NCBI GenBank assembly: GCA_040387855.1
Contig: JAZKCY010000001.1
Location: 445,857-509,856 of the forward strand
Length of the DNA: 64,000 nucleotides
Direction: 5' to 3'
From: Patescibacteria group bacterium
Lineage (GTDB): Bacteria > Patescibacteriota > Minisyncoccia > Phycocordibacterales > JAKAEA01
Shown: positions 5,575-45,744 of the stretch, piece after piece
How positions within the stretch are numbered: the stretch's first letter is position 1
How the letters are laid out: every line of letters begins with the position of its first letter
The notes under the pieces: model-generated
What the model saw: only the letters and a program-made list of their open reading frames with translations
Told to the model about the DNA's origin: nothing
Database searches by the model: none
Position numbers and translations under genes: made by a program

Positions 5575-6726
5575 GTGTCCTCCAGGAATATACTCATAAA
5601 TCTGAGGCTAGTCAACGTATGTTATACTATTTTTATGACTACGATTCTTATAGTTTTAATTATTGTATTAACTGCAATTTTGGGGGCAATGGTTGCTGTT
5701 ATTTTGAATTTAATGAAACGGCAGGATGAACCAAAAGAAGATATTGGAGTAAAACTATTGCTCGAGCAAATTAATGAATTAAACAGGACTGTAGACGGCA
5801 AAATGAGCGATTTGTCTCGCACTATGGACTTTAAAATTACTGAATCTGGCAAAATGATGAATGAATCCGTGCGTATGCAATTTACTGAATCTTCAAAACT
5901 AATTCAGAATGTGACTTCAGGACTCACAAAGCTCGATGAAACCAATAGACAAGTAGTTTCCTTTGCGGATCAACTTCAAAGTTTGTCAGATATATTGAAA
6001 AATCCAAAACAACGAGGGATTTTAGGTGAATATTATTTAGAGACTCTTTTAAAGAACGTGTTGCCACCAGGAAGCTTTCAAATGCAATATGGCTTTACGG
6101 ATGGCACTATTGTCGATGCTGCGGTGTTTGTGAAAGACAAAGTAATCCCAGTAGATTCTAAGTTTTCACTTGAAAACTATAATAGATTGGTTGAAACAAA
6201 AGATGAATTAGAACGAGATAGGCTTGAAAAAGTATTTGTGAGTGATTTGAAGAAAAGAATAGAAGAAACCTCAAAATATATTCAGCCCAAAGAAGGAACT
6301 ATGGATTTTGCATTCATGTTTATTCCTCATGAAGCTATCTACTATGATTTGCTCACAAATAGAATTGGTGTATTAAAAGAAGAATCTGAAAATTTAATCC
6401 AGAGAGCAGCAAGTAAGTATCACGTAATTATAGTTTCCCCAACAAGCTTTTTGGCATATTTACAGACAGTATTGCAAGGATTGAAAGCACTTCAGATTGA
6501 AGAATCAGTAAAGGGTATTATTAAAAATGTGGGTGAGCTTCAAAAGCATTTAAAGACATACGAGGAATATCATGGAAAGATGGGAAATGCATTGGGAACT
6601 GTCGTAAGTCACTTTAATAATTCTCATAAAGAATTTAAAAAGATAGATAAAGATATCTTAAGAATTTCAGGTGAGTCGCTTCAGATAGAAGCTCTTACAC
6701 TCGATAAGCCAGAAATGGAGGAATAA
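5575..6726 (+). CDS. rmuC: DNA recombination protein RmuC
   Basis: N-terminal TM, long coiled coil, and a C-terminal RmuC-like region (HVIIVSPTSFLAYLQTV). The real start may be the internal Met near 5635. Confidence 0.6.
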   Translation: MSSRNILINLRLVNVCYTIFMTTILIVLIIVLTAILGAMVAVILNLMKRQDEPKEDIGVKLLLEQINELNRTVDGKMSDLSRTMDFKITESGKMMNESVRMQFTESSKLIQNVTSGLTKLDETNRQVVSFADQLQSLSDILKNPKQRGILGEYYLETLLKNVLPPGSFQMQYGFTDGTIVDAAVFVKDKVIPVDSKFSLENYNRLVETKDELERDRLEKVFVSDLKKRIEETSKYIQPKEGTMDFAFMFIPHEAIYYDLLTNRIGVLKEESENLIQRAASKYHVIIVSPTSFLAYLQTVLQGLKALQIEESVKGIIKNVGELQKHLKTYEEYHGKMGNALGTVVSHFNNSHKEFKKIDKDILRISGESLQIEALTLDKPEMEE

Positions 6727-6791
6727 AAAAAGCGTACACCAAAGTGTAGCGCTATCCCATTTTGTTTGTACAATATCTTGCTCTTGATGGG

Positions 6792-7691
6792 TTACCAGAG
6801 CTTGATGGTGAGGCCGACGCCGATTGCACCGTCGAACTCCCTCGAGTCCGACATGCTGGTGATGGGCGTGCCCATCTTCCACACGGGGAGATCCAGCGTG
6901 ATGCTGTCGGAGAGCTTCCACGCGACCCCGCCGCTGTAGAACAGCATGAGGCCCGAATCGAATCCGTAGAAGCCAGGGTCAGCTAGCACCGCGAGCCGGT
7001 GCTGAAAGCTGACGCTCTCGTTGACCTGCCAGATGTGGTTGACCCCCACCTGGACCTGGCCCTCGAACCCTTCGTTGGTCGCGTTCGCGGACAGGTAGGC
7101 CTCGGGCTTCAGGAAGGGCTTGATCGTGTGGCCGTTGCCCAGATCGAGATCTAGGCTCAGCTCGCCGTACATGTAGATCAAGTCGCCCTTGGTCCCGCTT
7201 AGAAGCCGGGGGGCGGCGAGATCGAAGTACGACACGCCAACGTTCACGTTGACGTCACGTACTTTGCCGACCCACCCGAGGGTGTAGTCGACCTCGTCCC
7301 CGAAATTGGAGTTGAGGTTGGCGTCGTCGAGCCCGGCGGAGTGCCAGAGATCGATGTAGACGCCGTTAGGGAACGTCACGAACACGTCGGACTGCAGCAC
7401 CGGATCGGTGTGGTAGACCGATCCGTTTGCCCCGTAGTACTGAGACCACAGACGGGTCGTCAGCACGACGGACGGGTGAGGGGCCCCTTTGAACACCTCA
7501 TCCGGCTTCCGCGGTTCGTCGGCCTTCTTCGGCGCGACGGTGGGGTCGGTGTGCTCATGCACTCCGCCGCCAGTCGACTTCTCGGTCTTGATCTGCTCGA
7601 ACCGCTCGAGCCCGTCGTTCTGGTTGCCGTTGCAACCCAACAGGAACGACAGGCCGAGCACCAACGCCGCAACGTACATTCGCGTACGCAT
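6792..7691 (-). CDS. Lipoprotein with outer-membrane beta-barrel-like features; GC-rich (about 60%)
   Basis: Signal peptide with lipobox LLGC, alternating hydrophobic beta-strand patterns (VNVNVGVSYFDL), and a C-terminus ending ...GVGLTIKLW with an aromatic terminal residue as in OMPs. GC is far above the window background. Confidence 0.5.
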   Translation of the reverse strand: MRTRMYVAALVLGLSFLLGCNGNQNDGLERFEQIKTEKSTGGGVHEHTDPTVAPKKADEPRKPDEVFKGAPHPSVVLTTRLWSQYYGANGSVYHTDPVLQSDVFVTFPNGVYIDLWHSAGLDDANLNSNFGDEVDYTLGWVGKVRDVNVNVGVSYFDLAAPRLLSGTKGDLIYMYGELSLDLDLGNGHTIKPFLKPEAYLSANATNEGFEGQVQVGVNHIWQVNESVSFQHRLAVLADPGFYGFDSGLMLFYSGGVAWKLSDSITLDLPVWKMGTPITSMSDSREFDGAIGVGLTIKLW

Positions 7692-36230: not shown

Positions 36231-37211
36231 GTGGTCAAACCAACAGATATGGACACTCTCGAATACATAGCAACAAAGATAGATACCATTGAATTTCCTA
36301 AACGAAAGGCCCTTTCTTCACGCTATCCACAGCTTAAAGGCCCAATTTTAGCTCTAAAACGGGCATACTACTCCCTAGGCTATTCTTTAGGTACAGCGAG
36401 TGCAAACAAGCATTCTGATCGATTTTTCCCCGCAATTATAGCTCGAGGTTCTTCGGTGTTAATGCGAAAGCTTGGAGACTCTGATCTTGAACTACAGAAA
36501 CAAAAAATTACCAATTTAAAGTTGGCCGCAGAAAAGCTTAATGGCTTGATTATTGAGCCCGGAGCTACTTTTTCATTTTGGAATACTCTAGGCAATCCAT
36601 CACTCAAAAATGGATATGTAGAGGGAATGCTTTTGTCGGAAGGTAAAGTAGTGCGTGGAGTAGGAGGTGGTCTTTGCCAAATGTCTAATTTGCTTTTCTG
36701 GATGTTTTTACATGCACCTGTGGAAATAGTAGAACGCTTCCATCATTCTCGAGATTCATTTCCTGATAGTGGAAGAACACTACCTTTTGGAAGTGGAGCA
36801 ACCGTTTTTTACAATCTCATAGATCTAAAAATTAAAAATACTTCTGATCAACCAATTCAGTTAAAGATTTGGCTTACAGATACACAGCTCAAAGGACAGA
36901 TTCTCGCACCAATGCCTGAAAAGCAAAAATTTCATATTCATGAAAAAGATCATAGCTTCATAAAGAAAGGGGAGAAGTACTATCGATATAATGAGTTATG
37001 GAGAGACGTTCTTGTAAAAGGTACCCTTATAGAATCAAAAAAAATCTACACAAACTTTGCTCCAATAATGTATGAAGTAGATGAGAAATATATAACAGAA
37101 AGAAATATTCAACTTATAGATTTGGATCTCGAAAATAAAAAAGAAAATAAAAATAATTTAGAAGAAAATAAATCTATAGGATATCCACACCTCATAACTG
37201 TAGGGACTTGA
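36231..37211 (+). CDS. VanW family protein
   Basis: GGGLCQMSNLLFWMFLHAPVEIVERFHHS matches the VanW core (GGGVCQ.S..L). Confidence 0.65.
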   Translation: MVKPTDMDTLEYIATKIDTIEFPKRKALSSRYPQLKGPILALKRAYYSLGYSLGTASANKHSDRFFPAIIARGSSVLMRKLGDSDLELQKQKITNLKLAAEKLNGLIIEPGATFSFWNTLGNPSLKNGYVEGMLLSEGKVVRGVGGGLCQMSNLLFWMFLHAPVEIVERFHHSRDSFPDSGRTLPFGSGATVFYNLIDLKIKNTSDQPIQLKIWLTDTQLKGQILAPMPEKQKFHIHEKDHSFIKKGEKYYRYNELWRDVLVKGTLIESKKIYTNFAPIMYEVDEKYITERNIQLIDLDLENKKENKNNLEENKSIGYPHLITVGT

Positions 37212-37264
37212 TACCCCACTAGAGGGTAGGGGGGAGAGAGGAGAGGGTGACACCCCTTCTCTTT
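37205..37264 (+). repeat. Direct repeat copy 1 (attL-like), overlaps the last two codons and stop of the VanW-like gene
   Basis: GACTTGATACCCCACTAGAGGGTAGGGGGGAGAGAGGAGAGGGTGACACCCCTTCTCTTT; about 88% identical to the copy at 38812..38870. Confidence 0.8.
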
Positions 37265-37294
37265 TTACATTCGGAAGCATCTATTGCATCCCTA

Positions 37295-37310
37295 AAATCT
37301 GCTGATGTAT
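37295..37310. repeat. Left 16-bp inverted repeat AAATCTGCTGATGTAT
   Basis: Perfect reverse complement of 37733..37748; the pair flanks the ORF 37442..37720. Confidence 0.8.
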
Positions 37311-37441
37311 ATTATTTAATAATATCTATGACCGCTTAATAGTTTTCTCGCGACAGTTGATCTACTCATGACTAAGAGTTCAATCCACGATCTTTGTCTC
37401 TCGATAAGCCACTAGTGAGCTTTTTAAGTCAATTTTATTTA

Positions 37442-37720
37442 CTAACTACTGAATCCAAAACTTTTTAATGAAGTATGATCGTCAGGAGGGTTGGAACCCT
37501 TCATAATAATTTCCCCATAACTAGTTTCATACGACTTAACTTGTTTTATGATTAAATTTCTAAGTCTTTTAGCATGAATAGGAGAGAGCAAAAATTGCTC
37601 GGCAGAGTTTCCGGTAATTGTTTGTAAATAAAAATTCATTTCATCAAACAAAACAGCTGCACCACTAAGCCCCTTAGTAATTGGACTAAGAGGAATACTA
37701 GTAACTTTATTTTTTTCCAT
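37442..37720 (-). CDS. Hypothetical 92-aa protein inside the IR-bounded segment
   Basis: ORF start lies 12 bp from the right IR; no family recognised. Confidence 0.35.
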   Translation of the reverse strand: MEKNKVTSIPLSPITKGLSGAAVLFDEMNFYLQTITGNSAEQFLLSPIHAKRLRNLIIKQVKSYETSYGEIIMKGSNPPDDHTSLKSFGFSS

Positions 37721-37732
37721 ATATTTTCACTA

Positions 37733-37748
37733 ATACATCAGCAGATTT
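37733..37748. repeat. Right 16-bp inverted repeat ATACATCAGCAGATTT
   Basis: Perfect reverse complement of 37295..37310. Confidence 0.8.
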
Positions 37749-37885
37749 CAAGGAAGCAAGTTCTGCTGTAATTATAAATCCGAATTTTAATATTAATATC
37801 TTGTGCTTCTTGGATATGTGTGTCGGGGTTTATAACAGAGAATTGGGCTTCTCCACATAAGGTATAATGCATAAAACTAAAAACA

Positions 37886-38776
37886 ATGCCTATACCTAAT
37901 GAATATATTCTCGATTATATCAACTCTAAGGAGAGAGGAGTGAATACTCGACGAAATTATTTAATATGGTTAAATAAATTATCATCATTAATCGAGAAAG
38001 AAATAGATTTGTTCACCGAAAAAGATTATGAGGATATCGGAAATTATCTACTAAAATCAAATTCTTTAGCATATGTATCGTCCTTAATGTGGCAATTACA
38101 AAACATATTAGCATATTTAAGAAATCGAGATATCGTTAAAATCGATTTATATAAGCTTAATAAGTTTACAAATAATTATGCACCAAATATAACAGAACAG
38201 ATTATTTCTCCAGAGGAGTATGAAAAGATTCTTGATTATATAATGGATAAAGAGGAAGTGACTGATAACAGCAAGCGTATTAAAATTAGAAATGAATTGA
38301 TAATACGTATTTTGTGGGATACTGGAATTACAGTAACAGAAGTAATTAATTTGAGATTAAAGAATATTGATTTTGAAAAAAGATACATAATTATTGGTGA
38401 ACTAAATCCCAGAAGATTAGCATTATCAATGAAGACCATAGAAACAGCAAAATCATATAAAAAGCTTTTAGGTCTAGAAAATCAAAATGCTCCATTTATT
38501 CAAAATTTTGTAAAAAAGAGTTTTGATAAAAAATTCAGTGCAAGATCAATTCAAAGGTTTCTAAAGGATATAACTCAGGAATGTAAAATTGAAAGTGTAG
38601 TTACACCAAATTCATTTAGACATACTAAAGCTGTAATGCTCCTAAAGAAGGGAAGTCCACCAGATCAAGTAATGAAAATACTAGGGGTTAATGATTTTGA
38701 AAGTATATCTAAGTATATTGATATTATAAATGGAAAAAATATTGAGGTAAAAGTTTTAGGTCAAGAATATTTGTAA
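37886..38776 (+). CDS. Tyrosine site-specific recombinase (phage integrase / XerD-like family)
   Basis: N-terminal SAM-like domain, and a catalytic domain with R...HTKAVMLL...ILGVNDFESISKYI (R-H-R-Y type residues with terminal Tyr in SKYID). A TATAAT -10 lies about 30 bp upstream. Confidence 0.7.
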   Translation: MPIPNEYILDYINSKERGVNTRRNYLIWLNKLSSLIEKEIDLFTEKDYEDIGNYLLKSNSLAYVSSLMWQLQNILAYLRNRDIVKIDLYKLNKFTNNYAPNITEQIISPEEYEKILDYIMDKEEVTDNSKRIKIRNELIIRILWDTGITVTEVINLRLKNIDFEKRYIIIGELNPRRLALSMKTIETAKSYKKLLGLENQNAPFIQNFVKKSFDKKFSARSIQRFLKDITQECKIESVVTPNSFRHTKAVMLLKKGSPPDQVMKILGVNDFESISKYIDIINGKNIEVKVLGQEYL

Positions 38777-38811
38777 GAAAACTCATCTTAGTGATCAAAA
38801 TACTGACCAGA

Positions 38812-38870
38812 GACTTAATACCCCACTAGAGGGTAGGGGGGGAGAGAAGGGAGTAACACCCCTTCTCTTT
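38812..38870 (+). repeat. Direct repeat copy 2 (attR-like), immediately after the recombinase stop
   Basis: GACTTAATACCCCACTAGAGGGTAGGGGGGGAGAGAAGGGAGTAACACCCCTTCTCTTT. Carries G7 where copy 1 has G6. Confidence 0.8.
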
Positions 38871-39259
38871 TCTTTTTTATTTTTTCACCTACATGGAAAT
38901 ATGAGATCATAAAACCAAAAATAGAAATAAAATATTTTCTATAAATAATTGGTAGAGAAGTTACATTAAGTTCAACATTAAGATGAAGATTAAGAACATT
39001 AAGACGCCTGTGGATAACTTTTGAGGGGACCCCTCTTAATGTTCATATAAGGGTCGCACAATATATCTTTTACGACTCATATATACAAATAAGCTCTATA
39101 TATAGATATATTTTGCCTCTATATAAAGGACCTGCCTGTGGCTTCTTATGTACATATCAATGTATATACTAGTATCTATAATTACATATACAACAAGACT
39201 CAAGAATTTTGCTCTTGAGTCTCCCCTGATCTTTATTTTGATTTTTTAGGCTTCTTAGA

Positions 39260-39499
39260 TTATGTTGTTTTGATTATCTTTTCGTATCGTTCAATTTGAT
39301 CTTCATTGGCGTATTTTTCTATGTCACGTTCGAAGATCTCTTTAGCCACAGATCTATGTACCTCAAACTTTTCACCGAGCTGGCCCCAAGTCCATTTCTT
39401 TGGGTCCTTAATGCGGTGCTGTACGATTTGTTCGTTTCGATGCTCCTTAGGAAGGTATACCATGTCCTCTATTTTATTGAACTCCCTACACCTATGCAA
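39260..39499 (-). CDS. Hypothetical small protein (possible HTH)
   Basis: KWTWGQLGEKFEVHRSVAKEIFER is HTH-like; no family recognised. Confidence 0.3.
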   Translation of the reverse strand: MHRCREFNKIEDMVYLPKEHRNEQIVQHRIKDPKKWTWGQLGEKFEVHRSVAKEIFERDIEKYANEDQIERYEKIIKTT

Positions 39500-39669: not shown

Positions 39670-39864
39670 CTACGAAGATTTCGATGAGCGTTTGGATGTG
39701 CGTTTGTTTTTTGCACGCTTTGGTTTGTGCAGCTTTTTTAGCTTTGAGTAATTTAGCGCTGGTCCTTGTGGAGACCTGCGATCACTCAATTGGCCTTGAA
39801 GCCGACGGACCTTAGCAATAGCATCTTTTGTGAGCATAGAGACCTCCTCATAAAAGTATAGCAC
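39670..39864 (-). CDS. Hypothetical small basic protein
   Basis: Lys/Arg-rich C-terminus; not matched to any ribosomal protein I know. Confidence 0.25.
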   Translation of the reverse strand: MLYFYEEVSMLTKDAIAKVRRLQGQLSDRRSPQGPALNYSKLKKLHKPKRAKNKRTSKRSSKSS

Positions 39865-40291: not shown

Positions 40292-41980
40292 ATGAAAAAA
40301 GCTTTAACAATAACTATAGCCGGTACCCTCTTTACTATTGAGGAAGATGCATATCAAAAACTTGATGTGTATTTAAAATCTATTCAAAATTATTTTGGTA
40401 CAAGTGCTGAGGGTAAAGAAATTATAGAAGACATTGAGGCACGAATTGCCGAACAGCTTTTAGAAAATAAAACGGTTGCTGGTGTTGTTACTATTGAAGC
40501 TATCGAAAAGCTCATGACAACGATGGGAAGTGTTGAAGACTTTGGTGACAAGCCAGAATCTACAGGTACAGCATCGGAGAGTTCTAATGAAGACCCTACA
40601 GCGTCACGAAAGCTGTACAGAGATACTGATGATGTGGTGATTGCTGGTGTTGCTTCAGGTATCGCACACTATATAAAAGTTGATCCGCTCTTTGTTCGTC
40701 TTGGATTTATTGTCCTCACACTTATCACTTCTGGATTTTGGATTGTACTCTATATAATTCTTGCACTCATTGTTCCTAAAGCAGAAACAGCAGCAGAAAA
40801 AATGCAGCAGCGAGGAGGACCTGTTACCCTATCTTCATTTAAAGAAACGATAAAGAAAAATAGCGAGGAGTATATGCAGCGGTCATCAAAGCTTCGCACA
40901 ATACTAGAAAGACTTATCAGAGTATTTGGAAAGATTGTTGTAGTGTTTGTTAAAATTATTATAGGTTTAATTGCTATTAGTCTTATTGCTGGTGCATTAT
41001 TTGGATTAATTACTGCAACATTTACCTATGCCAATCTTATCTTCAATAGTAATTCTACGTATGTAGGGTTCCCTATAACAGAAGTTATTGGAGGACTGGC
41101 CCTCTTTGGATTGTCTACATTCTATTTTATTGCTGTAGCAATTCCACTTATTGTTATTGCGCTTTTGGGAGTAATGATGATTCGCCGAAAGAAAGTAGTT
41201 GGTATGCGATCAAGCGCTATCTTAGCTGGTGTGTGGGCATTGTCATTAATTATGGCTGGTACACTTTCAGTTAAATATATTCCACAAATTCATGATCATC
41301 TTGAGTCAATGCCAGAGAATCAAAGAGTAACTGAAACTCAGGCTATTACTCAGCCTTTTACCAAGCTCGATCTTAATGGATTTGAAAAAGTAAAATTTGT
41401 TCAAGCATCTACAACCTCAATTGTAGAAGAAGGACGTCGTGCTGATGTAGATGAGACAAAGTTTGAAGTGAAAGATGGAACACTTACTTTACAACGAGAT
41501 ATTCAAAATGAGTTTTGCTTGTTCTGTGATCGGGATAGTGTCGACATTATTATTTCTGCACCATTTGTAGATCGAATAGATATTACAGATAATATTCGTT
41601 TTCAAAGTGATGATATTCGTGGGGAAAAAGTGACTGTCGTAGTAGAAGATGTAGCACGAGCTGATATGAAAGTAGATGTTCGAGAATTAGTAGTTATAAC
41701 GCAGGGAGTTGCACGTGCTCATATTACAGGAACTTCAACATCGATGGGACTAACTCTAGAAGATGCTTCTCGTTTTGAAGGTGATACTATGAATGTGAGA
41801 GATGCATCTGTTAAGGCTTCTGGAGTTTCTCGTGCGTACGTACATGTAGATGCAACTCTCCATATTGATGCAGAGGATGTAAGCAGAGTTGAATACACTG
41901 GTACAGCAGAACCCACAATCATAGATAGTGATAATGCAAGAGTTGAACGAATGGATGCTGTAGAAGCTAGAACTGATTAA
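40292..41980 (+). CDS. PspC domain membrane protein with C-terminal DUF4097/DUF2807-like (adhesin-head-like beta) domain
   Basis: DVVIAGVASGIAHYIKVDPLFVRLGFIVLTL is the PspC domain. Multiple TM segments, and a C-terminal repetitive beta-rich region (VDVRELVVITQGVARAHITG...). This is the classic PadR-PspC-DUF4097 gene order. Confidence 0.6.
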   Translation: MKKALTITIAGTLFTIEEDAYQKLDVYLKSIQNYFGTSAEGKEIIEDIEARIAEQLLENKTVAGVVTIEAIEKLMTTMGSVEDFGDKPESTGTASESSNEDPTASRKLYRDTDDVVIAGVASGIAHYIKVDPLFVRLGFIVLTLITSGFWIVLYIILALIVPKAETAAEKMQQRGGPVTLSSFKETIKKNSEEYMQRSSKLRTILERLIRVFGKIVVVFVKIIIGLIAISLIAGALFGLITATFTYANLIFNSNSTYVGFPITEVIGGLALFGLSTFYFIAVAIPLIVIALLGVMMIRRKKVVGMRSSAILAGVWALSLIMAGTLSVKYIPQIHDHLESMPENQRVTETQAITQPFTKLDLNGFEKVKFVQASTTSIVEEGRRADVDETKFEVKDGTLTLQRDIQNEFCLFCDRDSVDIIISAPFVDRIDITDNIRFQSDDIRGEKVTVVVEDVARADMKVDVRELVVITQGVARAHITGTSTSMGLTLEDASRFEGDTMNVRDASVKASGVSRAYVHVDATLHIDAEDVSRVEYTGTAEPTIIDSDNARVERMDAVEARTD

Positions 41981-43872
41981 GTACTAAGTGCTTTCAAGAC
42001 TTCGCTTAATTTTATTTTAGCAAAGCATGATACTTTGTCTGCGCCACCGTAATAGATAAAGATATTATCGCCACGTACTACTGCCCCACAAGGAAATACT
42101 ACGTTATTAATTTCTCCAATAAGTTCATATTGTTCAATAGGTTCAAATAAATGATCAGTCATTCGTGCAGTAACGATCATAGGGTCTTTTAGATCAAGCA
42201 TTAATGCACTTGTGCGATAAATGCCATCATCTGAAATGCCATGGTAAAGCATAAGCCAGCCTTGCTTTGTCTTGATAGGAGGACATGAAAGACCAACTTT
42301 TTTGCTGTCCCACATTCCTGGTCGTGGGGTTAGAATCGGTGTGTATTCTTTTACTCTTTTTGGATTCTTTAAATCAATATAACTAGCAACAATATTGTGA
42401 TCAATACGATGAATCATGAGATTCTTGCCATTTTTAGTAAACGGCATAATGCATGAATCTTTATCATCAATTCCCTCTGGAGAAATAAGAACGGGTTTAG
42501 TCCATTCCCAATCGTGATTGAGAAAATCTTCTGTTGAAATGCTACTAAGAGCAACTGCTGGTGCATCTGTTCCGTTGTATGCTGTGTATGTGATATAGAG
42601 TCTGTCACCTATTTCAACTATTCGTGCATCTTCACATCCTGAATTGCCATTGGGTATATTTTTACTTTCAAAGCTTTCTCGTGGGGTGTAAATAGGATAC
42701 GGCAATCGCTCATCAATCTTTGTTCCGTTTTTTGATGATGCATATCCTACTGTTGAAGTATTATCCATAGACCATGCTCTATAGAGAATGTGGATTTTTC
42801 CATCAAGATCAATTGCTGCAGGATTGAATACTGCTCTATCTTCCCACTTTTCTTTTGTTGGAGAAAGAATTGGGTTGGAAGGCAATCGTAATATCTTTTT
42901 TGAAGGATGATCCAACATTGTTTGCAGTAAATCATCAACATTCACATATGCAACTGCTGTTGTCGTATCTGTAGCTCCATAAAAGATATAAAGTGTCTCA
43001 TCTTCTATTAATGCACCGGATGGAAAAATTGTTTTCGGTACAGTTCCGTATATTTCATAATGCTCTTCTGGAACAAGAAGTGGACCTTTTGTGCGAGCAA
43101 TAACTTTTTGTGGATCTTTGAGATCAAGTAAGACAGCTTCAATACCGAATATCTTTTCTTCAGAATAATAATTTTGAATGTGAGAATAAATAATAAGCCA
43201 GCCGTGTTTAGTCTTGATTGGTGTTGATCCTACTTCAATCTGATCGGTTGGTTTTCGTTTGAGATCCGTAATAAGGTGATCATCTATTTTGTCATGCCAT
43301 GTATTCCAAAATTTCTCTGACCACATATCTTCTTCTTTTGAAAATTGTGCAATTGCAATCTTTGAAGGCGGTTCATCAGTATGAGCAGAAAGAATAACCG
43401 TATATTTGCCGTTAATCTTTTCCGGGAAGAGGGCCATTGCTTTTGCATTAAATGGCGTAACTAAATGTTTTTCTCGTACTGTTTCTAGATCATCACTCAA
43501 TGCTACGGCAACTTTAATTCCCCGAGCGCCAAATGGAAATGTAGAAAGTGCAGTATAAAACGTGTAGTAAGTCTTTCCTAATTTTGTTACGCGAGGATCT
43601 TCGCATCCATAACGTTCCCAAGCTTCTGTAGGTTCTATAAATACCTGTCTGTTTTTATAATCCGCGCCATTGGTACTTACTGCCTTATAAATAGTGGATA
43701 AAGAAAAGTTCGTATTCTCAAATCGCTCTGGAGTAGTCTGTGCTCGATACAAAATATGAGTACGAGTTCCAATTTTGATTGGACTCGCATTAAATGCAGC
43801 ATATGCTTCATGAGCATTTGTTGTGTCGGGAGAAAGTATGGGATTTTGTTTTGATCGATGGACCGTATACAT
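41977..43872 (-). CDS. Tandem double-domain GH130-like (DUF377, beta-mannoside phosphorylase-like) glycosidase
   Basis: Two copies of the (F/A)FN(P/A)..I..(D)G..HILYRA block (AFNASPIKIGTRTHILYRA; VFNPAAIDLDGKIHILYRA). 631 aa. Confidence 0.5.
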   Translation of the reverse strand: MYTVHRSKQNPILSPDTTNAHEAYAAFNASPIKIGTRTHILYRAQTTPERFENTNFSLSTIYKAVSTNGADYKNRQVFIEPTEAWERYGCEDPRVTKLGKTYYTFYTALSTFPFGARGIKVAVALSDDLETVREKHLVTPFNAKAMALFPEKINGKYTVILSAHTDEPPSKIAIAQFSKEEDMWSEKFWNTWHDKIDDHLITDLKRKPTDQIEVGSTPIKTKHGWLIIYSHIQNYYSEEKIFGIEAVLLDLKDPQKVIARTKGPLLVPEEHYEIYGTVPKTIFPSGALIEDETLYIFYGATDTTTAVAYVNVDDLLQTMLDHPSKKILRLPSNPILSPTKEKWEDRAVFNPAAIDLDGKIHILYRAWSMDNTSTVGYASSKNGTKIDERLPYPIYTPRESFESKNIPNGNSGCEDARIVEIGDRLYITYTAYNGTDAPAVALSSISTEDFLNHDWEWTKPVLISPEGIDDKDSCIMPFTKNGKNLMIHRIDHNIVASYIDLKNPKRVKEYTPILTPRPGMWDSKKVGLSCPPIKTKQGWLMLYHGISDDGIYRTSALMLDLKDPMIVTARMTDHLFEPIEQYELIGEINNVVFPCGAVVRGDNIFIYYGGADKVSCFAKIKLSEVLKALST

Positions 43873-43878
43873 AGAATT

Positions 43879-45744
43879 TTAGATTGCGATTGATTTTTCA
43901 GGCTTGAGCGTAAACTCTTTGTTCTTTATTACTTTATCGAGTAATTCTTGAAGTGGTGCTGTTGCTACACAGATATGCTTATCTCCGCCACCGTAGTACA
44001 CATAGAGTGTATCGTTTTCTATAACTGCACCACAGGCATACACCACACCTGGCTTCCAATCATTTTCATACCAGGCATTTGGTTCAAGCAATGGTGCGGG
44101 TGCTCGAGCAAGTATTTTCTTTGGATCTTTAAGATCAAGCAACATTGCACCCAATTTATACTGATCAGGCTCGCGCTTATCTATGGCATGATATAAGACT
44201 AGCCAGCCCTTATCTGTTTTTAATGGTGGTGGACCAACTCCTCGTACATAAGTATCCCATGATGCTTGAGGCTTTCGTTTACCGAAATTACTTTTGATTT
44301 CTACTTTACCTGTAGCTAGATCCTCAAGCTTGTTCACATAATCAACTTCAATAGTTGGTGAAATATTGTGTAAGATAGCAAATTTGCCGTTAATCTTTTC
44401 TGGAAATAACACCCAGTTTTTATTTATTTTTTGAAGAGGAGAAATCAAAAGTGGTTTACTCCATCGCCACTTTTTACTTAAGAAATTCTTTAATGAAATA
44501 GAAGAAACTCCAATGCGAATACTGTCCCATCCCTCAAAGGCACTAAAAGTTACATAGACTTTGTTATCTATAGCAACCATGCGTGGATCTTCACATCCTC
44601 CCCAGCTTCCGCCAGATGGATACATTACAGGATCATATTTTCTAAATTCTGGATCTACATTGAGTCGTGGGTTTTCCATCGCGAATACAGCTTGTTCATG
44701 ATGGTCATCAAACATGAGTCCATCTGTACTTCCTGAATATCCCAAACGAGATACTCCATCAGCTCCTACCGCTCGATAGATAAGGTGTACTTTGCCTTGT
44801 GAGTCGCGAAATGCCGCAGGATTAAACGTCCCACCTGCAGTCCACTCTAAGTGGAGTGCGGGAGATAAAACAGGGTTTTTATGATGCTTTTTAAGCTCTG
44901 ATTTATCTACCTTTGGATGAGTGTGAAGTGAGTGAGTGAGTGCATGCGTTGGTACATCAAGTCGAGTACTCAAAATATAACCTTCTGCAGAGGTCCAAAA
45001 TAGAGATACTGTTGCATCAGTATGTTCTACTAAACCTAACGGCCGCATGTCGGTAAAGTGCTCGGTGGTAAGTGTTGCTTTCCATAGTGGGTCAAATGCA
45101 CGCCACAATATTTTTGTTGGAGTATGTTTATCCAAAAGCACTGCTCCTACTTGGATTACCCATTGCTCATCCTTGAGATATGAAGAATCGTAAAATAGTA
45201 GAGTCCCTCGCAATGTCTCATATGAACCCATGAGTTTTATCACATCTTGGTCAAAGAAATCTTGACGATAGGTCATGATGAGTCCAGGAGCTTTTACCCA
45301 AGTATGCAGATTTTTTGAATATGCCAAACGAGTAAAAGTGCCACCTGAAAACATATGATATTTGTGAGTATGATCGGAAGATTCTGCGAGTACTACATCA
45401 TCTGACGTTGCTGCTACTTCAGACACAATGAGCCATTTTATAAGATCGATAGATGTAGCGATAACGCGCTCTCTCGTGCCACGTTTGATGCGAATATAAG
45501 TAGCTGTCCACATTTTTTCATGTTCAGAAATGGAAAAAGTACTGCAATGGGCAGGATTTTCTTTTGTTCCATGAGGTAAAGAGATACTTATATCTTCAAA
45601 TTCTAGAGACTCTGCAAAAGATCCATCTTTTTGTTTCCAAAGAATTATAAACTTTGATGAAGCAGCATCAGTACGCGCAAAAATACCAACAGAATCTTGG
45701 TTCCCTAGTATTCCAAGTGGTATATAAGGCGTTTGTTTCGCCAT
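43879..45744 (-). CDS. Tandem double-domain GH130-like glycosidase (paralog of 41977..43872)
   Basis: TFNPAAFRDSQGKVHLIYRA plus a second beta-propeller-like half; 621 aa. Confidence 0.5.
   Translation of the reverse strand: MAKQTPYIPLGILGNQDSVGIFARTDAASSKFIILWKQKDGSFAESLEFEDISISLPHGTKENPAHCSTFSISEHEKMWTATYIRIKRGTRERVIATSIDLIKWLIVSEVAATSDDVVLAESSDHTHKYHMFSGGTFTRLAYSKNLHTWVKAPGLIMTYRQDFFDQDVIKLMGSYETLRGTLLFYDSSYLKDEQWVIQVGAVLLDKHTPTKILWRAFDPLWKATLTTEHFTDMRPLGLVEHTDATVSLFWTSAEGYILSTRLDVPTHALTHSLHTHPKVDKSELKKHHKNPVLSPALHLEWTAGGTFNPAAFRDSQGKVHLIYRAVGADGVSRLGYSGSTDGLMFDDHHEQAVFAMENPRLNVDPEFRKYDPVMYPSGGSWGGCEDPRMVAIDNKVYVTFSAFEGWDSIRIGVSSISLKNFLSKKWRWSKPLLISPLQKINKNWVLFPEKINGKFAILHNISPTIEVDYVNKLEDLATGKVEIKSNFGKRKPQASWDTYVRGVGPPPLKTDKGWLVLYHAIDKREPDQYKLGAMLLDLKDPKKILARAPAPLLEPNAWYENDWKPGVVYACGAVIENDTLYVYYGGGDKHICVATAPLQELLDKVIKNKEFTLKPEKSIAI

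Follow-up and report, generated by a model that had tools for sequence, protein, structure and literature searches.

Does a 1.6-kb segment that lies between two direct repeats and carries little besides an integrase-family gene represent a mobile element, and could such an element still move? We address this question for a locus in the genome of a Patescibacteria group bacterium (GenBank assembly GCA_040387855.1, contig JAZKCY010000001.1), which we analyzed within a window of 64 kb (contig positions 445,857 to 509,856; coordinates below are counted from the first letter of the window). A preliminary interpretation based on the letters alone, hereafter the sequence-only reading, had described here a minimal integrase cassette at the 3′ end of a gene of the VanW family. 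We tentatively interpret the segment as the immobilized relic of a small, horizontally acquired integrated element, and consider this to have slightly less than an even chance of being correct. The interpretation draws on the repeats, on the composition and surroundings of the segment, and on the degenerate active site of its recombinase homologue.

The segment is delimited by direct repeats DR1 and DR2, the putative attL and attR (Table 1). Repeat searching and gapped local alignment bear out the earlier description of a ~60-bp pair of about 88% identity: 57 of 64 aligned columns are identical (89%), with a single 1-nt insertion or deletion within a G run. The location given in the sequence-only reading stands; its limits needed adjustment, as each copy starts 3 nt earlier and ends 1 nt later. 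The repeat search resolves the pair into two blocks (37202-37234/38809-38841, 94% identity; 37230-37265/38836-38871, 86%), and the BLAST E value of the pair within the window is 5e-14. A 24-nt stretch, ATACCCCACTAGAGGGTAGGGGGG, and a 16-nt stretch, ACACCCCTTCTCTTTT, are identical in both copies, and each occurs exactly twice in the window (0.00 and 0.07 occurrences expected). The sequence-only reading had also considered that such repeats might be dispersed through the genome. Neither blastn-short nor an nhmmer profile of both copies detected a third copy in the window, even a diverged one.

DR1 overlaps the VanW coding sequence by only 10 nt and contains AGGGACTTGA, the end of that gene. Because the VanW open reading frame (ORF) ends at 37211, DR1 carries GGG ACT TGA, that is, the last two VanW codons and the stop; DR2 reads GAG ACT TAA in identical register. 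Between the repeats, the ORF listing contains a 92-aa ORF (ORF92) and a 296-aa tyrosine-recombinase homologue, and no other genes. Both of these points had been described correctly from the letters. The layout is therefore att-like, with a repeat at both junctions and an integrase-family gene next to one of them (its stop codon lies 33 nt from DR2).

Table 1. Coordinates of the features discussed, with the loci and proteins used for comparison.
Feature	Position	Strand	Details
DR1, putative attL	37202..37265	+	64 nt; found by repeat search and gapped local alignment
DR2, putative attR	38809..38871	+	63 nt; begins 33 nt past the recombinase stop codon
Xer-like 'simple' tyrosine-recombinase homologue	37886..38776	+	296 aa, MES2436898.1; degenerate active site
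VanW-family gene, target or neighbor	36231..37211	+	Pfam VanW, 9.3e-44; last 10 nt in DR1
IR-L, left arm	37284..37310	.	27-nt inverted repeat
IR-R, right arm	37733..37759	.	12 nt upstream of the ORF92 start, in the divergent ORF92/recombinase intergenic region
ORF92, orphan 92-aa ORF	37442..37720	-	hypothetical protein V4519_02705 (MES2436897.1); wholly within the 422-nt segment bounded by the inverted repeat
ACATTAAG motif cluster	38963..39042	.	three direct copies, one inverted copy and one GATTAAG; 92 nt right of DR2
Inverted-repeat-flanked Flavobacteriaceae loci	~5740-7120 in most		L040, L041, L042, L044, L046, L047, L050, L054, L056, L070, L074, L077
Degenerate recombinase homologues			P0127, P0132, P0150, P0155, P0198, P0211, P0219, P0228, P0264, P0271 and others

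In both copies, the 3′ half of the repeat is a hairpin followed by a T run, resembling an intrinsic terminator. The hairpin of DR2 is a perfect stem of 17 pairs (38835-38876) with a long T run behind it, and that of DR1 is weaker and rich in G:U pairs, again followed by a T run. DR1 thus doubles as the terminator of VanW and DR2 as that of the recombinase gene. One could argue from this that the repeats belong to a dispersed family of terminators or of sequences resembling repetitive extragenic palindromic (REP) elements, or that a terminator was duplicated locally by a process that had nothing to do with recombination, with the recombinase gene simply happening to lie in between. We regard this as unlikely. 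It is consistent with hairpins positioned precisely at the expected transcript ends of VanW and the recombinase gene, with folding z-scores that are unremarkable relative to shuffled sequences (−0.84 and −1.41), and with a recombinase that looks inactive. It also gains from the scope of the analysis: the window, within which the uniqueness of the repeats holds, comprises 64 of the 981 kb of the genome (6.5%), which also counts against past integration. However, an abundant family should have left more than two copies in 64 kb, and a rare one would seldom place two of them 1.6 kb apart around the only recombinase. Furthermore, identity extends across the 33-nt 5′ half, which lies outside the terminator, includes the in-register stop codon and is better conserved than the 3′ half, and the repeats coincide with a break in base composition.

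That break is pronounced. With 29.6% GC, the interior bounded by the repeats is the lowest-GC 1.5-kb stretch of the window (mean, 38.8%; standard deviation, 4.1%), equaled only by intervals that overlap it, and the recombinase gene has the lowest GC content of all genes in the window (27.2%). Taken together, repeats that are unique in the window and located at a composition break, stop codons in the same register, and an integrase-family gene 33 nt away make a past integration the simplest account.

Related genomes support an insertion at a coarse level. The closest relative of the VanW protein (64% identity) is encoded on a 2-kb contig; longer contigs (L001 to L005) carry VanW genes at 56 to 58% identity. 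On one of them, L001, genes for VanW (56% identity), PadR (61% identity) and a PspC/DUF2807 protein are neighbors, the set that is also found in the window, with no recombinase among them; the sole gene between VanW and PadR is an unrelated gene of 89 aa. In the window, VanW and PadR are thus separated by a lineage-specific interval of 2.7 kb. None of the five contigs, L004 and L005 included, has a recombinase gene beside VanW, and an nhmmer search of 86 relative loci detected no DR-like sequence 3′ of VanW or elsewhere. Low GC content, orphan genes, and a relative in which VanW lies by PadR and PspC without a recombinase therefore make an insertion plausible. The att-site logic put forward in the sequence-only reading holds as far as the layout is concerned: the repeats are unique in the window, they enclose its lowest-GC segment, the recombinase gene is close to DR2, and the relative has VanW near PadR without a recombinase between them. 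It holds less well for the rebuilding of the 3′ end of the target gene, which amounts to two codons and a stop within a repeat that is mostly terminator hairpin.

The integrase-family gene encodes a protein that NCBI annotates as a 'site-specific integrase' of a Patescibacteria metagenome-assembled genome, on a contig of 981,549 bp. Its assignment to the tyrosine recombinases is clear: residues 107-279 match PF00589 (Phage_integrase) with 76.7 bits (cutoff 27.1; E = 2.4e-21), the N terminus has weak SAM-like matches, the integrase family PHROG 1 is matched at 8e-23, and the structures matched are those of XerA (4a8e and 5hxy). The sequence-only reading had asked whether it was a Xer protein, an integrase or an invertase. 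Among NCBIfam models, XerA_Arch scores best (94.8 bits, cutoff 220), ahead of XerD (75.5, cutoff 329.6), XerC (69.2, cutoff 335), and XerS (48.4, cutoff 267). The protein therefore fails all curated Xer equivalog cutoffs, and it also falls short of those tested for IntI. An integron reading was rejected on these scores (TIGR02249, 58.5 bits against 265; PRK15417, 29.5 against 435) and because the recombinase gene lies inside a repeat-bounded unit and not beside an array. When 1.84 billion representative proteins were searched exhaustively with HMMER, the nearest non-self homologue had 28% identity (E = 8e-16). A word-indexed search of 5.8 billion proteins returned one weak match only, and the protein forms a single-member cluster.

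Tyrosine recombinases act through an RKHRH pentad and a nucleophilic tyrosine (PMC8138268). We placed these positions by alignment to XerA (4a8e and 5hxy) and to IntI4 (2a3v). Arg-I is replaced by T149 (GITVTE where GLRVSE is expected), the β-hairpin Lys by E172 or P175 (GELNPRR for GKGGKDR), His-II by N242 (TPNSFRH for TPHQLRH), and His-III by V268 (LGV for LGH). Arg-II, which shares its motif with His-II, is kept as R245, and the nucleophile is kept as Y277. Four of the six catalytic residues are thus substituted, and Arg-II and Tyr alone remain. Given the mechanism of the family, the protein should be inactive or very atypical.

This bears directly on whether the element could still move. 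The sequence-only reading had offered a minimal integrative element as one option. If active, the 1.6-kb unit would excise and integrate through DR1 × DR2 with its own recombinase, despite a non-canonical active site. With four catalytic residues gone, we judge this improbable. An active element would explain the att-like layout equally well, and its ORF is intact and retains both the Tyr277 nucleophile and Arg-II. A precedent also exists in IntDOT of CTnDOT, which functions without a canonical Arg-I. However, here four positions are substituted together (T, E/P, N, and V), the unit encodes no replication, transfer, or excisionase functions, and no second copy or relative was found in any collection searched. 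Moreover, the sole documented degenerate relative to have been tested, the streptococcal YnbA/'XerD' protein, is conserved and lacks two of the R-H-R-Y residues, and it showed no activity in recombination assays (PMC1914069).

A noticeable minority of the nearest homologues show similar substitutions. In a MAFFT alignment of the 118 nearest homologues, the expected residue is found at Arg-I in 105, at the β-hairpin Lys in 104, at His-II in 105, at Arg-II in all 118, at His-III in 109, and at Tyr in 116; all six are kept in 100 of the 118. At least two catalytic residues are lost in 15 homologues, which keep Arg-II and usually Tyr (two of the 15 have a gap there). About 10 of these share a pattern in which Arg-I becomes K, T, or S, His-II becomes N, Q, or K, and His-III becomes F, L, Y, or V. 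Judging from these alignments, the degenerate Xer-like homologues, which carry the annotation of integrases, may represent a recurrent variant class. They could also mark a functional variant rather than decay, which would favor an active element.

The recombinase frame itself is informative. It has remained intact over 296 codons despite a GC content of 27%, a composition that readily gives rise to stop codons, and some selection on the protein is therefore probable. This suggests that the protein has been kept for a function other than catalysis, for example DNA binding, or that its activity was lost recently. We can envisage a domesticated, catalytically inactive recombinase fold acting as a sequence-specific DNA-binding factor near the replication terminus, for example on the inverted repeat described below or on the ACATTAAG cluster, as part of a wider class of Xer-like proteins with Arg-II and Tyr only; alternatively, that class might recombine through a non-canonical site. 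We think it doubtful that either of these holds.

A second repeat structure lies inside the segment and had gone unreported in the sequence-only reading. It is a 27-nt inverted repeat (IR) with arms IR-L and IR-R, which are complementary at 24 of 27 positions and perfectly so over the inner 16 nt. The arms are 422 nt apart, lie 126 nt from the start of the recombinase gene, and enclose ORF92 alone. The repeat is unique in the window (two matches, 0.00 expected; E = 3e-4 for the 16-nt core). A reading of this IR as a miniature inverted-repeat transposable element (MITE) or insertion sequence (IS) was rejected, as no target-site duplication lies beside the arms. Touching the inner end of IR-L there is also a perfect 8+1+8 palindrome, ATATTATTTAATAATAT (37309-37325), which is AT-rich and may be due to chance.

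ORF92 offers few clues to its role. A search of 5.8 billion proteins returned only itself, and a match to Pfam DUF3467 (E = 2.1e-4, 21.7 bits) is below the cutoff of 25 and falls on the C-terminal helix. The single-sequence AlphaFold2 model is poor (mean predicted local distance difference test score, 57.5), with four strands followed by helices, and a fold search against the PDB gave nothing significant (best E = 0.18). Promoter-like matches are weak and about as numerous as in shuffled sequence (18 found, 17.1 expected). Orphan status, which ORF92 shares with the recombinase, is usual for mobile DNA.

To find out whether such repeats accompany related recombinases, we turn to the subfamily of the best full-length relatives, which share LWDTGxRxSE, TPHSFRHGKAH, LGH, and the C-terminal ending. 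According to a pattern scan in which each species was represented by one genome, its members occur in Bacteroidota (many of them Flavobacteriaceae) and in Patescibacteria (Moraniibacteriota, Minisyncoccia, and Saccharibacteria); some genomes have multiple copies. Inverted repeats adjoin or enclose a member at 13 of 80 loci. At a locus from Moraniibacteriota (L009, 5974-7504), the recombinase has an intact active site, and 98-nt IRs (6884-6981/7407-7504, with a 45-nt core at 98%) come directly after it. These enclose a 425-nt non-coding segment containing TTGACG-17-TATAAT, a promoter that faces genes for an S24/S26 peptidase and a PD-(D/E)XK/DUF2800 nuclease. On sequence grounds, we consider this segment, which comes from a Patescibacteria genome, a candidate promoter inverton. 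At 12 loci from Flavobacteriaceae, perfect IRs of 18 to 23 nt (consensus AGTAACTTAAATACAAAG) flank an intact recombinase gene and are ~1.15 to 1.25 kb apart; the outer-left flank is conserved as well. At one of them (L044), the neighbors are a TrwB-like (T4) coupling protein, RadC, and a RepO-like protein; like the neighbors in L009, they suggest a mobile-element-like context. The Flavobacteriaceae loci look like a self-contained recombinase unit, invertible or resolvable, within a mobile element. Given that the subfamily is tied to mobile elements and partly to IRs, the IR in the window can reasonably be read as a substrate of such an enzyme.

These observations lend some support to the phase-variation module that the sequence-only reading had also mentioned. 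The recombinase would then flip the 422-nt segment, moving ORF92 from behind the divergent promoter region to behind the terminator of VanW and back, and the direct repeats would be nothing but insulating terminators. A window-unique IR that brackets ORF92 right by the recombinase gene fits this model. So do the intact relative L009, with IRs around a promoter-bearing segment, and the 12 Flavobacteriaceae loci, with their Hin-like layout. Nevertheless, we find the model unlikely to be correct. The active site is degenerate, the IR arms have three mismatches where those of the relatives are near-perfect, and no adjacent IR was found at five other Patescibacteria loci of the subfamily. Nor does inversion explain why two terminators 1.6 kb apart should be 89% identical over 64 nt, including the half that is not a hairpin.

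The position of the locus raises a further possibility. GC skew is positive from the start of the window to ~42 kb and negative from ~44 to 64 kb, with a cumulative maximum at ~42 to 44 kb, and long runs of plus- and minus-strand genes converge at 41977-41980, in a gene pair overlapping by 4 nt. The region from 41977 to 44000 is thus probably the replication terminus, 3 to 6 kb from the segment. Locus tag V4519_02705 corresponds to about gene 541 at roughly one gene per kb, which would be compatible with a mid-contig position. Could the recombinase be the organism's own Xer protein, in a single-recombinase module for chromosome dimer resolution of the XerS/difSL type, beside a dif-like site? 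The proximity of the terminus would fit, as would best NCBIfam and PDB matches to XerA, XerD, and XerC, a solitary gene that ends in a terminator of its own, which matches the description of xerS (PMC1914069), and the existence of a 'Cand' subgroup of Xer-related recombinases in candidate phyla (PMC8138268). Still, we rate this account as very unlikely. All Xer scores are far under their cutoffs, the protein lacks catalytic residues that strand exchange requires, its gene has a foreign-looking GC content, and a housekeeping Xer protein should be conserved, whereas the nearest homologue has 28% identity. With two direct-repeat sites flanking it, the gene would be deleted. In Bacteroidota, members of the closest subfamily occur in multiple copies and in association with mobile elements, which argues against a housekeeping Xer. 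The window contains no match to the bacterial dif consensus at up to three mismatches, although a non-canonical dif could escape this consensus. A hand-spotted candidate adjoining IR-L, TGTATATTAT, was discarded, as the arms on either side of it form no palindrome. Our literature searches turned up no work on Xer/dif or on invertons in Patescibacteria.

We therefore return to the immobilized relic and set out how it could have arisen. A small element would have entered by Campbell-type site-specific integration at the stop-codon and terminator region of VanW, near the terminus, and integration would have duplicated the ~64-nt sequence, leaving DR1 as attL and DR2 as attR. The crossover probably took place within the 24-nt identical block, which holds a small palindrome, TACCC-CACTAGA-GGGTA, read by eye. 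If so, the two mismatches to the left of the block would distinguish host (DR1) from element (DR2), and the differences in the hairpin arms to the right would distinguish element (DR1) from host (DR2); the better terminator in DR2 would fit a host origin of its hairpin arm. After integration, VanW would have retained an in-frame stop and a terminator, with the recombinase gene ending at the other terminator copy. The element would have brought in a Xer-like simple tyrosine recombinase and the adjoining 422-nt segment with its DUF3467-like ORF; this segment probably once served enzymes of this family as a substrate for inversion or recombination. Later, four of the six catalytic residues of the recombinase would have been substituted, and the IR would have drifted to 24 of 27. 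The lost residues and the drifted repeat suggest that the element is probably unable to excise or invert by itself.

Several observations weigh against this scenario. The terminator hairpin makes up more than half of each repeat, and its conservation or duplication could be unrelated to recombination. The arms of the palindrome, at 5 bp, are short for the core site of a recombinase. Recognition of both the direct and the inverted repeats by one protein is unlikely, given that their sequences are unrelated. The intact frame at low GC speaks against simple decay. Synteny was assessed in distant relatives, in which the orientation of VanW relative to PadR is reversed; they establish the interval as lineage-specific and not the direct repeats as its boundaries. 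Finally, integration would be deduced from the layout alone, the 21-nt core of the repeats having no exact match in collections of genome, metagenome, and viral contigs.

The remaining features of the locus concern its flanks. The VanW protein scores 194 bits against the NCBIfam model vanW-gen, below the cutoff of 365, and by this measure is not an orthologue of resistance accessory proteins. Its C-terminal ~30 aa form a low-complexity tail rich in Lys and Asn that cannot be aligned to homologues, which cover ~88 to 90% of the query. The window contains no tRNA or transfer-messenger RNA (tmRNA) genes and no Rfam match at the gathering threshold; an att site of the tRNA type is thus excluded.

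To the right of DR2 there is a non-coding gap of ~320 nt between convergent terminators, and four of the seven copies of ACATTAAG in the window are clustered inside it, within a stretch of 80 nt. They form an iteron-like set of candidate binding sites, whose membership in the element is uncertain. The gap also contains a 26-nt imperfect palindrome centered on ACTAGT (within 39149-39192), which is AT-rich and may have arisen by chance. Two minus-strand ORFs with no family match, of 79 aa (39260-39499) and 64 aa (39670-39864), lie between the segment and PadR. The first has a helix-turn-helix-like stretch and its own terminator-like hairpin (39195-39223). Neither is homologous to the 89-aa gene at the corresponding position in L001, and neither they nor ORF92 matched any family in PHROGs or NCBIfam. 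Elsewhere in the window, a minus-strand ORF of 299 aa (6792-7691) has 62% GC, and 87% at third codon positions, in a genome of 39% GC, with no Pfam match; it lies in a region (4 to 10 kb) that averages ~46% GC. It may be a recent horizontal acquisition, or a chimera of assembly or binning.

If the layout does reflect integration, the locus would be a very small, recombinase-only insertion in a reduced Patescibacteria genome (~1 Mb), near its probable terminus, and a clean example of mobile DNA that enters reduced genomes and is then stranded there. If non-canonical catalysis proved to be real, the 1.6-kb unit would instead be one of the smallest self-sufficient integrative elements. The automatic label 'site-specific integrase' on degenerate homologues would mislead surveys of mobile elements and of phase variation. 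The locus is a single instance without replication in other genomes, and we present it as a lead rather than a discovery.

How does this locus compare with known systems? It is closest in layout to elements with simple (Xer-like) recombinases and attL/attR sites, namely small genomic islets, integrative mobilizable elements, and Brujita-type phage integrases (class in PMC8138268). It shares with them direct repeats around a foreign segment, an integrase-family gene by one repeat, an in-frame stop and terminator for the target, foreign composition, and orphan cargo. It differs in spanning only 1.6 kb, with ORF92 as sole cargo, in having lost four of six catalytic residues, and in targeting the terminator of a protein-coding gene rather than a tRNA gene.

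In its active site, the recombinase resembles the streptococcal and lactococcal 'XerD'/YnbA proteins (PMC1914069), which are likewise Xer-like, with an intact frame and a degenerate catalytic site. The resemblance is one of kind, as a weak full-length match to NF002685, the model for streptococcal XerD-like/YnbA proteins (E = 6.7e-4, 19.6 bits against a cutoff of 178), does not make it a member of that family. YnbA is conserved throughout its clade, whereas the protein studied here is an orphan, flanked by repeats and foreign in composition.

The inverted repeat recalls fimS with FimB/FimE, the flagellar switch of Clostridioides difficile with RecV, and, in layout, the Hin/hix segment, which contains the gene for its own recombinase. 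The likeness lies in short IRs that delimit a few hundred base pairs right beside a recombinase gene; relatives within the subfamily (L009 and the Flavobacteriaceae loci) have the inverton layout too. In contrast to tyrosine-recombinase invertons, the segment here holds a whole small ORF, the IR is imperfect, the recombinase is probably inactive, and one orientation is seen in one assembly. As for XerS/difSL at terC (PMC1914069) and IMEX elements at dif, the likeness lies in a stand-alone Xer-like gene with its own terminator, a few kb from the switch in skew and gene orientation, and in repeated sites flanking an insertion near the terminus. These systems differ from our locus in that it has no dif-like site in the window, has lost catalytic residues, is not conserved, and scores far below Xer cutoffs. 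Elements with att repeats, degenerate recombinases, and IRs adjacent to recombinase genes are thus all of known kinds; what is new is a very small example from a poorly sampled lineage.

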